In this document: piece after piece, positions 12,001 to 18,000 of the stretch
How positions within the stretch are numbered: position 1 is the stretch's first letter
Layout: each line of letters opens with the position of its first letter
DNA from: a virus
Taxonomy: Duplodnaviria; Heunggongvirae; Uroviricota; Caudoviricetes
IMG/VR virus record: IMGVR_UViG_3300045988_080861
Coordinates: 1 to 36,735 of that record
Strand: one strand, 5' to 3'
DNA length: 36,735 bases
Made by a program: the position numbers

Positions 12001-15000
12001 TCGTCTGATGATTCGCAGTCAGTGGAGCGATGACAAGGCTAAGCAGATAGAGTCTGTCGTCATGCGCCTGTACGAAGAAGATGGGCTGCGCGGAGATGAG
12101 CTATACAAGAAAGCTCGCGAACTGGTCATTCCTCAATCATCGTTTAGCCACATCATCACTCTCGCCAAAGAATCAGATGATGCGGCTTTCGTTGAACGTG
12201 TGATGGTTAAAACGTTTCACCGTGAAAGCCCTGTCCGCGATGTAGCTATTAAGCGATATTGCAATCGCAATTGCACGCAAGATATAGCCAGGATTATTTC
12301 TTATATAACAGGTGCTGATATTCAGTATTGTCGTAAGCGAGTGGTGTGGTGTGAGAAAGTGCTGGAGTCAGAAATGTTTTATGCAATGAAACGAGAATTG
12401 GAGAAAGAATTTCCATTAATAGCGGCCTGAACTGAAATAATTTTGTAAATGCGTTGCTTCCGAGAAATGAAAGTGGTATTTTTTGTATATGCTCGGAGCA
12501 AAAGCGAACTGAGCAGCGAAATTGAAATCCTGATTTCCCCGGTTGCCGATAATATTTAGGGTCGACATACTGGCTAGATTAGGTAAGAGCCTCGGCATAA
12601 ACGTCGGGGCTTTTTTGTTTGCACAACAGGTAAGTGCATTTGTAGAGTTCGACTCTCTACCGTGGGCTTTTTCCCGCGATGCGAGCCATAAGTGCTCTTT
12701 CCGTTGTGCTGAATTAAGCGAATGCCGGAAGCAGAACCGGATCACCAAATGCGTGCAGGCGTCATCGCCGCCCAGCAACAGCACAACCCAAACTGAGCCG
12801 TAGCCACTGGCTATCCTGAATTCATCAGTGATAGTTACGCTGCGGCCTTCTTTTTTCCCCTTCCCAATATAAGAACTACGCAATCCGTTACTGGCGGAGG
12901 CGTTGCTATGAAATCAATGGACAAAATCTCAACTGGCATTGCCTACGGAACATCCGCTGGTAGTGCGGGATACTGGTTTTTGCAGTGGTTGGATCAGGTC
13001 AGTCCATCACAGTGGGCTGCGATTGGTGTACTGGGGAGTCTGGTTCTGGGCTTCCTGACATATCTGACTAACCTGTATTTCAAAATCAGAGAGGACCGTC
13101 GTAAGGCTGCACGGGGAGAGTAATTCAATGACTCAAAACTATGAACTGATTGTGAAAGGGATCCGCAATTTTGAGAATAAAGTTACGGTAACTTTAGCGT
13201 TACGGGACAAAAAACGCTTTGACGGTGAAATTTTTGACCTGGACATCTCGCTGGACCGTGTTGAAGGTGCCGCGCTGGGGTTTTATGAGGCAGCAGCCAG
13301 AAGGAGCATCAGACAGGTCTTCCTGGATGTTGCTGCCGGGTTATGTGAAGGGGATGAGCAGTCGCCGGAAAAGCGCCCCGTAATTTTAGAGGCGCAGAAT
13401 GTGTGGATAACCTACAAAGGAAAGCTACCAGGAAGAATTACTGGTTCTCTGAAGACTCCTCCGGAATCACAACCTTAAGTCACTGACCGGAACAGATAAA
13501 CCTGTCCGTGGGCAGAAACCGATAAATCCTGATAAATATCCATGAACGCAAAAATCAGATACGGCCTGTCGGCTGCCGTTCTGGCACTGATTGCCGTCGG
13601 TGCGCCCGCGCCTGATATTCTCGACCAGTTTCTGGATGAAAAAGAAGGTAACCACACAACGGCATACCGCGATGGTTCCGGCATCTGGACCATCTGTCGG
13701 GGTGCCACGATGGTGGATGGAAAACCCGTTTTTCCCGGTATGAAACTGTCGAAGGAAAAATGCGACCAGGTCAACGCCATTGAGCGTGATAAGGCGCTGG
13801 CATGGGTGGAGCGCAATATTAAAGTACCACTGACCGAACCACAAAAAGCGGGTATCGCGTCATTTTGTCCCTATAACATTGGCCCCGGTAAGTGTTTTCC
13901 ATCGACGTTTTATAAGCGGCTGAATGCCGGTGATCGTAAGGGGGCATGCGAAGCGATTCGCTGGTGGATTAAGGATGGTGGGCGCGATTGCCGCATACGT
14001 TCAAATAACTGCTATGGGCAAGTTATTCGTCGTGACCAGGAAAACGCATTAGCCTGTTGGGGGATAGAGCAGTGAGCAGAGTCGCCGCGATTATTTATGC
14101 TCTGGTTATCTGCACCATCGTCTGCCTGTCATGGGCTGTTAATCATTACCGTGATAACGCCATCGCCTACAAAGACCAGCGCGATAAAGCCACATCTATC
14201 ATCTCTGATATGCAGAAGCGTCAACGTGATGTAGCTGAACTCGACGCCAGATACACAAAGGAGCTTGCTGATGCTAACGCGACTATCGAAAGTCTCCGTG
14301 CTGATGTTTCTGCTGGGCGTAAGCGCCTGCAAGTCGCCGCCACCTGTGCAAAGTCAACGACCGGAGCCAGCGGCATGGGCAATGGAGAAAGCCCAAGACT
14401 TACAGCAGATGCTGAACTCAATTATTACCGTCTCCGAAGTGGAATCGACAGGATAACCGCGCAGGTTAACTACCTGCAGGAATACATCAGGACGCAATGC
14501 CTGAAATAATTTTTTTGCAAATCACACAGTCCATTTAATGAGCCTCGCGATGCGGGGCTTTTTGCAATAAATGCGTACCGCAACGCATGTTTTTTACACC
14601 GAACCTGCCCCTTTGGAATGGGCCTTTGAGGATACCAGTTAGTGCTGGCGAGCCTCGGTGGGCTGGTTTCCTGTGCGGCAAAGGTTCATTTCAAAGAGTA
14701 GGTACACGCTATGAAATCATTAACCCTCTTCAATCAACCAATTCGTATCGGTGAAGATGGCATGATCTGCCTCACTGATATGTGGAAAGCCAGTGGTAAA
14801 AGTGAATCTGAATCGCCTTACCACTACCTGCGAAACAAGCAGACCAAAGAGTTCTTAGCCGAGCTGGAGAAAAACCACGAATCTGTGGTTTTTACTGAGC
14901 GCGGTGTACACGGTGGAACATATGGCGGGAAGTTTGTTGCTTATGATTATGCAGCATGGCTAAACCCCGGATTTAAATATGCAGCCTATAAAGTCCTGGA

Positions 15001-18000
15001 TGACTACTTCACCGGAGAACTTCAGCATCGCAACAGCTTAAGTGCGCAGCTCAATATGAAGTGTCATGAGTTTGATCAGAAAAAAGATATGGCGAGCTTC
15101 TGTGGACAAGGGCTGGCGGCATGGCGCTATACGAAGCCAGTGTTGGTCGCTGAGATTAACTCCCTGGCTAACCAGCTGCAGATAACGATCCCCGGGCTTC
15201 CGGGATGAGTGATCGTGTCATTGAATGCGCTTCCAGAGCGGGGCGCGACTTCTCAGAGTTCATGAAAGGCGAGAAGGGCATGATGGAAGCATTGGCCTCG
15301 GTGGATGAGTTTGGCGAGCAGCTGCGCCTCAACGGCTGTGTCAATCATCACTTTGTTAGCTACATGATGCGGAACTCGATCATGCAGGCATTCATGGACA
15401 TGGCAAAAGCCGAGAGGAAAGAAGAGCGCCGGCGTAAGCGAGCGGAAGCAAAAGCGAAATAGCCATTACAAAGCCCATCTACGGGTGGGCTTGATAATGA
15501 AACCGGAATTTATTCTGGGTAACCAGTTACGGCAGTACAGCGAAACAACCCAAGCCAGAAAGTGGGGAAATAACACTGGCAGCCACTGAAAGATGAACCT
15601 CCTGCCTTATGGCAAAAAAAGATTCTTTGTGGTGGCGGACTGATGGAAAGACATCGGTTATTGCAGAGACCATTCAATGAGTGGTCTCGACAATGGCTTA
15701 TACCCTACACGGGATAACTTAACTGATATCCCTTTTAACGGATAAACGGAGCCAACAATGGCAGAGAATGTCGGCATTATGGCAGTGAAATTTGGATAAA
15801 TCGGGGATTAGAAAGATAGAGGCGAGCCGGTCAGGTAGAAATGAATCAGGCTCAAAGTGAAGCGGAAAAGGTCTGTGGCACAAACTGATGCTGCCATAAT
15901 TACAGCCTGATGACTTGTGGAATGAAACATGTTGAACCTCCTTAATTGATGTGATTCGAGTGAGGAAGGCATTCTGTCCTTCTATAGTGTCCAGTAAATC
16001 AAACAGGAAGCTTGTCTCACGTGTGAGACAAGCCTCTCCATTAGCGAGTTGTATTGATTACAACTCTTCAAAGAGTTCATTACTGGGTAGATGAAAATAG
16101 TTTCACGACGAATGGAGGAGACTATGTCGGTGGCTTCTTCATTGGAGTACATATGCTCCCTCGAACCTCAAAAGCATGCCGAGTTCGCGGCTGCCGCCAT
16201 ACCACCACAGATCCGTCAGGCTATTGCAAAAGCCACAAAAGCGAAGGCTGGAAGCAATACAAGCCGGGCCAGTCCTGTCATCAGCGCGGTTATGGTTCGC
16301 GAGGTTGTCCCTCATGCTCGCCAGTCCTGTGCGGGGGTGGAAGAAACAGGACACTCACACAGATTCTTGTGGGTCGATGCTATTCCTTTCTGGATTATCC
16401 CGATGCCATTCATGCAAGGGCTGTATAAGACGTTCGTCATGGCTGTCAGGCTGACGGGTCCTCCCGGTGGGGTGGCCTGCCACGGGGCGGGAGCGTCGCG
16501 GAAAAAGGCTAGTTTTTGCATTTTTATCGGCCACCATCATCTTTGCATCTTATTGATTATTAATGGTTATTTGTTTTTTGCATGTCGAATTGAGTGTTTT
16601 TTGTTCGACATCGAACGCGTTTTCTTAAAGTTGTTCGCACGATGCATGTTTAAAGCTCTCCGGAGGAAATATGGATCATGAGTTGAAAAACCTGGTGCTG
16701 AATATTAATCAACTGGCGGCTTTATCTGGTCTGCACCGCCAGACTGTCGTGGCAAGACTGAAAAACATTCGTCCCGCTGGTGGACATGACAAACTCAAGC
16801 TATACCGGTTGACCGATATTCTGACTGAATTTATGGGGTTACCACCGCCGGTTGCTGAGGGCGAAATGGATCCACATGAACGCAAAGCCTGGTATCAGTC
16901 TGAACGTGAGCGTCTTAAGTTCGAACAGGAAACGGCACAACTCATTCCGGCCAGTGATGTCAGACGGGAGTTTGCCATCTGGGCAAAAGCGGTCGTGCAG
17001 GTGCTGGAGACATTACCGGATATTCTGGAACGTGACTGCGGTCTGCAGCCTGCCGCTGTGAGCCGTGTTCAGTCCATTATTGATGATCTGCGCGATCAGA
17101 TAGCCCTGCGGGTGACCGAAGCAGGTGCGGATGATGAGGAGGAATTACAGCAGGAGGAGTAATGCTGAATCAGGAAACCGCAAAGGCAGCACGAACCGAT
17201 TCAGGTTATATCCTTCGCGCACCGAGACGAATGCGGGTTGCTGATGCCGTTGCTCAGTATATGCGGGTGCCCATGGGGGCAGGGAACTCAGTCCCGTGGG
17301 ATCCGCTGGTGGCACCGTATGTTATTGAGCCGATGAACTGCCTGGCCTCGCGTGAATACGACGCAGTGATATTTGTTGGCCCGGCACGAACCGGCAAGAC
17401 TATCGGCCTGATTGACGGCTGGGTGATTTACAACGTGATTTGCGATCCTGCTGATATGCTGATCATTCAGATGACGGAGGAAAAAGCCCGCGAACACTCC
17501 AAAAAACGACTCGCCAGAACGTTTCGCGTCAGCCCGGAAGTGGTCAGTCGCCTGAGTCCGAACAAAAATGACAACAACGTTTATGACAGAACATTCCTTG
17601 CTGGTAACTACCTGAAAATCGGCTGGCCGTCAGTCAATATCATGTCCTCATCAGATTATAAATGCGTCGCGCTGACGGATTATGACCGTTTTCCGGAAGA
17701 TATTGATGGCGAGGGGGATGCTTTCTCTCTTGCCTCAAAACGTACCACCACATTTATGTCCAGTGGTATGACGCTGGTGGAGAGTTCCCCCGGCAGGGAT
17801 GTGAAGGATGTGAAATGGCGACGGACTTCACCGCATGAGGCTCCACCAACCACGGGGATCCTGTCGCTCTATAACCGTGGTGATCGCCGTCGCTGGTACT
17901 GGCCCTGTCCACACTGTGGTGAGTATTTTCAGCCCTGCGGCGATGTGGTTGCTGGTTTCCGTGATATTGCCGATCCCGTGCTGGCAAGTGAGGCGGCTTA

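Follow-up and report, generated by a model that had tools for sequence, protein, structure and literature searches.

A conserved structured RNA leader and an exchanged KilA-N gene pair in the post-lysis slot of lambdoid phages

The rha gene of phage P22 (orf201) is a late-operon gene that is harmful without integration host factor (IHF), as recounted in PMC4936722, which cites Henthorn & Friedman 1995; IHF-dependent growth inhibition is recorded for Rha alone. A partial counterpart of rha, here called gene A, is found together with a small gene, B, between Rz and cos in a 36,735-nucleotide (nt) stretch of viral DNA (IMG/VR record IMGVR_UViG_3300045988_080861, positions 1 to 36,735; the whole stretch is referred to below as the window), which by gene order is a lambdoid prophage or phage segment. 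The Rha proteins of P22 and phi80 resemble A in being encoded in the same post-lysis slot of the late operon, behind the same leader, and in sharing the ORF11CD3 C-terminal domain (34% identity). They differ in having a pRha head instead of KilA-N and in lacking B downstream: the head domain PF09669 (Phage_pRha), present in the Rha allele of an Escherichia coli prophage (locus L107), gave no match in A at E values up to 1. Full orthologues of the pair, with the same order and overlap and no difference of substance, occur as hkbK/hkbL in HK620, as the "kilA" pairs of Shiga toxin (Stx) phages and in PhiR49_1, where they are annotated as unknown, hypothetical or by domain name; the pair is thus already in the databases without a recorded function. 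On balance we think it probable that A-B is a dispensable, exchanged Bro/KilA-N cassette in a Q-dependent late operon, acting as a translationally throttled DNA-binding module and not as a conversion moron.

Much of the argument turns on the RNA that precedes A. A structured leader of about 110 nt, delimited by folding, a covariance model (R1) and covariation, occupies 14598-14711 on the plus strand. The long hairpin at 14603-14703 has a minimum free energy (MFE) of -48.7 kcal/mol (z -3.6), and 0 of 200 shuffled sequences was as stable. Its helix P1 (14611-14621 with 14682-14692 in the window) pairs a 5' strand (CCUUUCAG..) with a 3' strand (..CUAAAAGG) that covers the Shine-Dalgarno sequence and is paired in most variants. 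In the window the likely Shine-Dalgarno sequence of A, GUAGGU (14698-14703), lies 8 nt before the ATG and pairs with 14603-14608 in an outer helix. Inside P1 are helix P2 (GAGCCUG/CAGGCUC), a conserved 3' internal loop (CUGUGNGNAC) and helix P3 (AGRNN/NNYCU), followed by P4 and a variable apex. Model R1 matches the window once, at 76.3 bits (E 1e-14), and a profile of the leader picked out 31 distinct versions in the loci compared, every one of them immediately before a start codon; another 79 leader loci came from a pattern scan of IMG/VR. The same architecture emerged from independent MFE folds of 21 divergent versions. Rfam 15 yielded no family at E up to 1, either in window 14450-16700 or at the leader positions of five other loci.

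Covariation was assessed in two alignments. In a sequence-only MAFFT alignment (A5), 77% of the cells are paired, compared to 65.6% in shuffles, and double changes occur at 23 pairs, a number that none of 500 shuffles attained (15.8±1.9); covariation scores 0.352 here, whereas shuffles give 0.177 and slid controls 0.08-0.13. The second alignment (A7), of 57 distinct sequences aligned by model R1, is biased in favour of the structure, to which it was fitted; here 91% of cells are paired, 24 of the 28 pairs show compensatory change, and the score is 0.353 versus 0.147 in shuffles. A first RNAalifold run on the MAFFT alignment recovered the inner helices only, because the leader subtypes differ by indels, and this was resolved by the per-sequence folds and the covariance model. 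G·U pairs are frequent in the leader and the reverse strand scores 22-31 bits with R1, as opposed to 47-109 bits for the sense strand, which argues for an RNA transcribed from the sense strand. The leader is a conserved, covariation-supported RNA structure that pairs the ribosome-binding region of A, and it shows both the sequestered Shine-Dalgarno sequence and the compensatory conservation that mark hairpins sequestering a ribosome-binding site (RBS). It is absent from Rfam and appears to be new; a limited literature search found no description of it, and an earlier one may exist.

In lambdoid and P22-like phages, what follows the leader is mostly a gene of the Bro network or one that resembles homing endonucleases. 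Among 19 representatives, the Pfam families are pRha (4), KilA-N (4), ORF11CD3 (4), HNH_3 (3, two with AP2), P22_AR_N (1), ANT (1), T5orf172 (1) and, behind weaker leader matches, Phage_Tail_Tip (2), and a few of the genes have no family. Weaker yet significant R1 matches (50-54 bits) precede open reading frames (ORFs) outside the Bro network in three IMG/VR loci (L117, L129 and L203); two of these ORFs match Phage_Tail_Tip, indicating that the leader is not strictly confined to Bro or homing-endonuclease genes. P22 rha itself has an R1 leader (78 bits, at 1457-1570 of locus L229), and the annotated GTG start of orf201 (ORF 1501-2106) falls within it. Because the leader ends at 1570, the real start is probably the ATG at that position (MNELIANH...), which would give a protein of about 178 amino acids (aa). 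The RefSeq "Rha family" coding sequence in L107 likewise has its annotated start inside the leader. In leaders of the HK97 type (L082 at ~1700-1715, L084, L104, L096 and L043) the apex contains CGCUCUU, the core of boxA (the NusB/NusE-binding element); the subtype in the window has GAGCCUCGG in its place, and the likeness to boxA may be a coincidence.

The mobE and I-TevI genes of phage T4, in the work of Gibb and Edgell from 2009 and 2010, reportedly have hairpins that sequester their RBS. The leader resembles those hairpins in that it hides the RBS of a mobile, potentially toxic gene within a long phage transcript, and it differs in its length of about 110 nt, its several helices with an internal loop, its presence before many unrelated genes, and the lack of an evident internal late promoter. 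The KilA protein of phage P1 is lethal when expressed. Throttling by the leader would fit all three precedents, namely the block caused by Rha without IHF, the lethality of P1 KilA and the T4 homing-gene hairpins, and a leader common to such genes would explain why strong transcription of the late operon is compatible with the presence of potentially toxic genes in it. A wider proposal is offered tentatively, as a possibility of limited weight: the leader would represent a new class of cis-regulatory RNA that gates translation of mobile Bro-network and homing-endonuclease-type genes in late operons; a trans-acting factor, RNase III or B itself may open it; and A/B, Rha, T5orf172 and HNH-AP2 genes would be interchangeable genes of inter-phage conflict, exchanged at a common site made up of the leader and the 3' flank.

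Gene A (14711-15208, plus strand, 165 aa) and gene B (15205-15462, plus strand, 85 aa) lie where a preliminary description of this DNA had placed them, and its KilA-N assignment for A was correct. Residues 9-101 of A (14735-15013) match Pfam KilA-N (PF04383) at 57.6 bits, well over the cut-off of 23.8, and A has the APSES-type alpha/beta DNA-binding fold. A second domain had been overlooked: residues 109-161 (15035-15193) match ORF11CD3 (PF10549) at 50.5 bits, above the gathering score of 25, and this segment lies C-terminal to the Bro-network head and is modelled as a helical hairpin. On the profile matches and the model, then, A is an APSES-like (KilA-N) domain fused to an ORF11CD3 helical hairpin, and it is predicted to bind DNA. 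The translational coupling suggested for the pair is borne out by the sequence, in which the ATG of B overlaps the TGA of A at 15205-15208 (junction ccgggATGAgtg), and the description of the C-terminus of B as rich in Lys, Arg and Glu was equally accurate (KAERKEERRRKRAEAKAK). No Pfam family matches B, which falls in phrog_875 (annotated function unknown); AlphaFold models it as a three-helix protein (residues 3-20, 26-42 and 48-84) with the basic tail at its end, and the predicted local distance difference test (pLDDT) scores are 84.6 for A and 92.9 for B. When compared with relatives of 66-86% protein identity, the ratio of nonsynonymous to synonymous substitution rates (dN/dS) is 0.07 for A and 0.08-0.12 for B, so that both genes are under purifying selection. 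Because dN/dS is low, the AlphaFold models are confident and the loci kept from an IMG/VR search with B all include A, the two are real genes and not chance ORFs. Profiles of A and B found no match among PDB chains, and fold searches with B were uninformative.

B belongs to a narrow family (138 clusters at 90% identity, with 22 representatives among 1.84 billion proteins) whose hosts are essentially all Enterobacterales. In the 80 IMG/VR loci kept from a search with B, A is upstream and directly adjacent in every case. More generally, B was always directly downstream of a Bro-network gene in the loci examined, either coupled to it or beginning no more than 2 nt past its stop, and the partners are of the KilA-N-ORF11CD3, KilA-N-P63C and pRha-X types. 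The ATGA junction recurs in a Klebsiella copy and in a pRha-B pair (L086), and the KilA-N-P63C partners have TGAtcATG instead. Family comparison also uncovered a homology, new here, between B and the N-terminal domain of T5orf172/MUG113 proteins. In two distant members, P0133 and P0135, a T5orf172/MUG113 (GIY-YIG-type) domain follows a B-like N-domain in one protein, and P0133 matches the phrog_875 profile at 2.7e-9. B is thus the N-terminal domain of T5orf172 (GIY-YIG-type) nuclease genes in stand-alone form. A zinc site formed by C8, C45, H48 and H49 of B was considered and dropped, these residues being missing from the T5orf172-fused relatives.

Protein identity of the pair to its counterparts in HK620, ECP1, PhiR49_1, Ss-VASD and many Stx phages is 94-100%, and in PhiR49_1 gene A is annotated "KilA-N-ORF11CD3". 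With an 871-nt query (window 14600-15470) and presence defined as at least 80% of the query, the cassette was found in 388 of 5426 complete E. coli genomes; synteny of the pair, named as a check in the preliminary description, is conserved, with the same order and overlap in HK620, the Stx phages and PhiR49_1. Phage PhiR40_1 has the same Rz and terminase flanks with 232 nt in place of window 14503-15678, which means that the cassette is dispensable. In Klebsiella phages A-B, together with the upstream hairpin and leader, is flanked by the major tail gene on one side and the tape-measure chaperone genes on the other. The closest Pseudomonas counterpart is orf11 of phage D3, the namesake of ORF11CD3, whose product resembles A in architecture (KilA-N plus ORF11CD3, 27% identity over 92% of A) and which is likewise inserted in a late structural cluster, among the head-tail genes, albeit in a phage of a different host genus; the D3 locus (L108) gave no R1 match and no B homologue was detected there. 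A-B is thus a dispensable insert that moves horizontally and is exchanged.

The exchange is best seen in the post-lysis slot itself, where A-B is one allele of a hypervariable segment between Rz and the terminase genes; that this slot forms an allelic series with P22 rha among its members is also new here. The other alleles are the P22-type Rha (pRha plus ORF11CD3), KilA-N plus P63C followed by B, as in HK97, and a T5orf172 GIY-YIG-type gene. Homology of HK97 and HK022 to the window runs as far as 14563 and resumes over 15220-15767, where the conservation of the HK97 3' stretch ends, so that B and 300 nt downstream of it are kept at 91-96% nucleotide identity and only the leader and gene A are swapped. 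The incoming gene, with B (HK97p61) after it, encodes KilA-N-P63C; its leader is of the same family, and it differs from A in having P63C for ORF11CD3, in a KilA-N domain only 23% identical, and in the TGAtcATG junction. In HK97 (L082, 2501-2759) the copy of B is frameshifted after about residue 54, with its C-terminal part in another frame; the HK022 copy is intact. The E. coli prophage Rha allele has Rz and the leader in common with the window, the shared sequence reaching 12 nt into A (up to 14723), and then continues as a pRha-ORF11CD3 gene, 85% identical to P22 orf201, that is not followed by B. In Salmonella, Klebsiella and E. coli prophages the slot is filled by a gene with a B-like N-domain fused to T5orf172, and in one of these (L094) the 3' flank of that gene matches window 15464-15512 at 94% identity, starting two bases past the stop of B. 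In Cronobacter and Erwinia phages, distant KilA-N-ORF11CD3 genes are in the same slot, followed by unrelated small genes. Elsewhere, in an Arc/Mnt-ant (immI-like) operon, B homologues come after a pRha gene and overlap it in ATGA, and a B-T5orf172 gene adjoins a KilA-N-P63C gene. In locus L106 (711-1286) and in phages cdtI and phi458, recombinant genes start with a pRha N-terminus and pass into the KilA-N domain of A near residue 45, with the downstream part 96-97% identical to A and B identical, suggesting recent recombination inside the KilA-N domain.

These patterns also feed the main rival explanation, which we rate as unlikely: that the slot is a landing pad for homing-endonuclease-like genes and A-B a nuclease-free relic or partner of them. 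The leader and the 3' flank would then supply homology for copying, and A-B would be a passenger or a cleavage-resistant allele of little benefit to the phage. Several observations fit such a history, among them the use of the same slot and 3' flank by a T5orf172 gene whose N-domain is homologous to B, the same leader before HNH_3-AP2 genes, the sharp mosaic joints (14563, 14711-14723, 14838, 15220 and 15464), chimeras such as the pRha fusion within the KilA-N domain of A, and the occurrence of the cassette at unrelated late-operon sites. Stand-alone N-domains of this kind also have a precedent in CapR, a DNA-binding repressor of the Vibrio PLE satellite that consists of the N-domain of a T5orf172 homing gene standing alone (PMC8096241); CapR resembles B in this form, and no sequence relationship between the two was found. 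However, unlike the free-standing T5orf172/GIY-YIG homing genes, neither A nor B has a nuclease domain (GIY-YIG/T5orf172, HNH or LAGLIDADG, in Pfam searches). Strong purifying selection on both genes, and their presence across 388 complete E. coli genomes, also speak for a role of their own.

The preliminary description had put the pair in a moron slot after the lysis-cassette terminators, a region said to carry typically lysogenic-conversion or accessory genes in lambdoid phages, and its account of the position was accurate. Two sites with a hairpin and U-run follow the stop of Rz on the plus strand: a terminator-like hairpin directly after it, at 14540-14565 (-14.4 kcal/mol, z -3.3), and a second, small one at 14571-14594 (-6.9 kcal/mol, found by a terminator scan), which ends in UUUUUU and corresponds to a CGCGCA...UGCGCG hairpin in the other leader types. 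Alignment A2 shows the first of these conserved across HK97, HK022 and the Klebsiella tail-cluster copy, and it moves together with the cassette. The idea of a moron slot holds in so far as the cassette is extra DNA between genes that are adjacent in related phages, both at the PhiR40_1 site and among the Klebsiella tail genes. Lambda-type phages do carry conversion genes such as bor between Rz and cos, and a dispensable insert bounded by hairpins, with upstream terminators that would insulate an autonomous unit, is what a prophage-expressed gene with its own promoter and a conversion or fitness value for the lysogen might look like. As for a terminator downstream, a strong hairpin follows the stop of B directly (15464-15499, plus strand, -20.6 kcal/mol, z -5.5), and its U-tract is poor; this hairpin is the start of the 3' flank held in common with the T5orf172 allele.

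What such a unit needs is its own promoter, and here the moron idea lacks support. Consensus-based scans, with a tool and by our own procedure, found no sigma-70-like promoter in the leader of the window or in four other versions of it. The cassette has the orientation of the late genes, downstream of a Q-like antiterminator, in every context examined, and the RBS of A is sequestered. Its relatives are phage regulators or nucleases, and the other occupants of the slot (Rha and T5orf172) are phage-directed genes of the Bro network or for nucleases and not host-fitness genes; A and B both lack a signal peptide, a membrane segment and an effector domain. The conversion reading accordingly fails on the promoter test and fits the family context poorly, and we regard it as improbable.

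Quite improbable, too, is a role in defence or counter-defence, either as a system of abortive infection like BstA or as an inhibitor or trigger of host immunity. BstA, a prophage-encoded protein of about 307 aa that protects against exogenous phages, has a KilA-N-like N-domain (Owen et al., PMC8585504), and the defence annotation proposed earlier as a check gave, for A, a single weak and partial PADLOC match to the candidate PDC-S22 (E 1e-8, over 30 residues). The same scan gave nothing for B and no BstA match for A, the presence of a BstA model in PADLOC-DB 2.0 not having been checked. A is also much shorter (165 aa), with an ORF11CD3 tail where BstA has a different C-domain; and defence against exogenous phages implies expression in the lysogen, whereas A-B lies in a late operon without a promoter.

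A further explanation, highly improbable in our estimation, makes A-B a packaging accessory, a DNA-binding factor near cos or pac that aids or modulates terminase in the manner of the HK97 HNH protein gp74. The slot does lie directly upstream of cos or terminase in lambdoid and P22-like phages, and the phenotype of Rha is IHF-dependent, IHF being a factor that acts at lambda cosB. But the close relative PhiR40_1 packages without the cassette, the same cassette occurs in tail and head-tail clusters far from cos, and the terminase found with the slot varies in type (GpA/DUF1441, Nu1 and Terminase_2).

The exchanged, late-expressed cassette that we favour could work as follows. Transcription would be by Q-modified polymerase only, during lytic growth, the upstream hairpins being read through on the late transcript and insulating the cassette in the lysogen. 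The leader would hold a DNA-binding protein that may be harmful to low or conditional translation, and B would be made in a fixed ratio with A through termination and reinitiation at the overlap. A would bind specific DNA, probably as a dimer held by the helical hairpin, and B would be its partner or modulator. The output would be regulation of, or interference with, the DNA of the phage or a co-resident element, in a Rha-like or antirepressor-like fashion and not as host conversion, since the B gene in an ant operon and the relationship to Rha both point that way.

Several points weigh against this scheme. Late-only expression is predicted from the genomic context, and scans based on a consensus could miss a weak or non-sigma-70 promoter. 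Read-through of the upstream hairpins under Q antitermination is assumed from lambda biology, and otherwise the hairpins would block transcription. The throttling ascribed to the leader is deduced from its structure. A and B may interact physically, yet B is not tied to one partner domain; unrelated small genes replace it in Cronobacter and Erwinia phages and none follows the Rha allele, so B may act independently of A. Around the cassette, a search for repeats or operators at which A might act found just short, chance-level repeats and the palindrome at the right boundary, and hence no DNA target. Nor is there a match to the IHF consensus near the cassette; the single match in the whole window is at 642-654.

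Genes of the Bro/KilA-N network are among the commonest and least understood in phages, and one of them can now be placed in a defined frame. The slot alleles tie A to the genetically characterised rha genes of P22 and phi80 and to GIY-YIG-type nucleases, and phrog_875 gains a domain homology through B. Two annotations would change as well, in that A and B are unlikely to be lysogenic-conversion genes and the annotated start of P22 orf201 is probably inside the leader.

The rest of the window follows the lambdoid plan. A cI-type repressor gene (3239-3940, minus strand) is followed in the gene order by nin-region genes, the Q-like antiterminator (11786-12430), a P21-type holin, a DUF1327/YdfR-family ORF (13128-13478), lysozyme and Rz, then A-B, and then a small terminase subunit of the DUF1441 type and a GpA large terminase. 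Some relatives have the DUF1327/YdfR-family ORF inserted between holin and endolysin, and others lack it. The cos site is placed near 16646 because the left end of phage mEp460 aligns about there.

Beyond the hairpin that follows B, the remainder of the insert relative to the empty-site phage PhiR40_1 (by blastn against L089) is 15500-15678. The right boundary falls at the centre of a near-perfect palindrome at 15660-15694 with 17-nt arms (ATTGCAGAGACCATTCA/TGAGTGGTCTCGACAAT), which is centred exactly on that boundary in the comparison with PhiR40_1 and PhiR49_1. Just downstream, window 15747-16284 constitutes 538 nt that are extra relative to PhiR40_1; it contains an apparent HNH endonuclease gene, present as a 5' fragment (MLPRTSKACRVRGCRH...QRGYGSR) that ends abruptly, and a strong 13-bp hairpin with a T-run on the minus strand (16036-16007). 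The HNH-like ORFs at 16054-16681, which look intact, were set aside as a truncated remnant with no similarity to HK97 gp74.

The window carries two further loci of related gene types. In the early or nin region, a homing-endonuclease-like gene with HNH_3 and AP2 domains (7598-8209) lacks an R1-type leader, unlike the HNH-AP2 genes that other phages have between Q and the holin, which do carry one. At 9302-11027, Rfam models score above gathering for isrK (78 bits), C4 antisense RNA (64 bits) and c4-a1b1 (51 bits), and two Ant-type Bro-network genes follow (9553-10230, phrog_377, and 10299-11027, phrog_63). This segment looks like an antirepressor operon of the P1/P7 type under C4 RNA, located in the nin region, and its Ant-type genes, together with A, bring the number of Bro-network genes in the phage to at least three.

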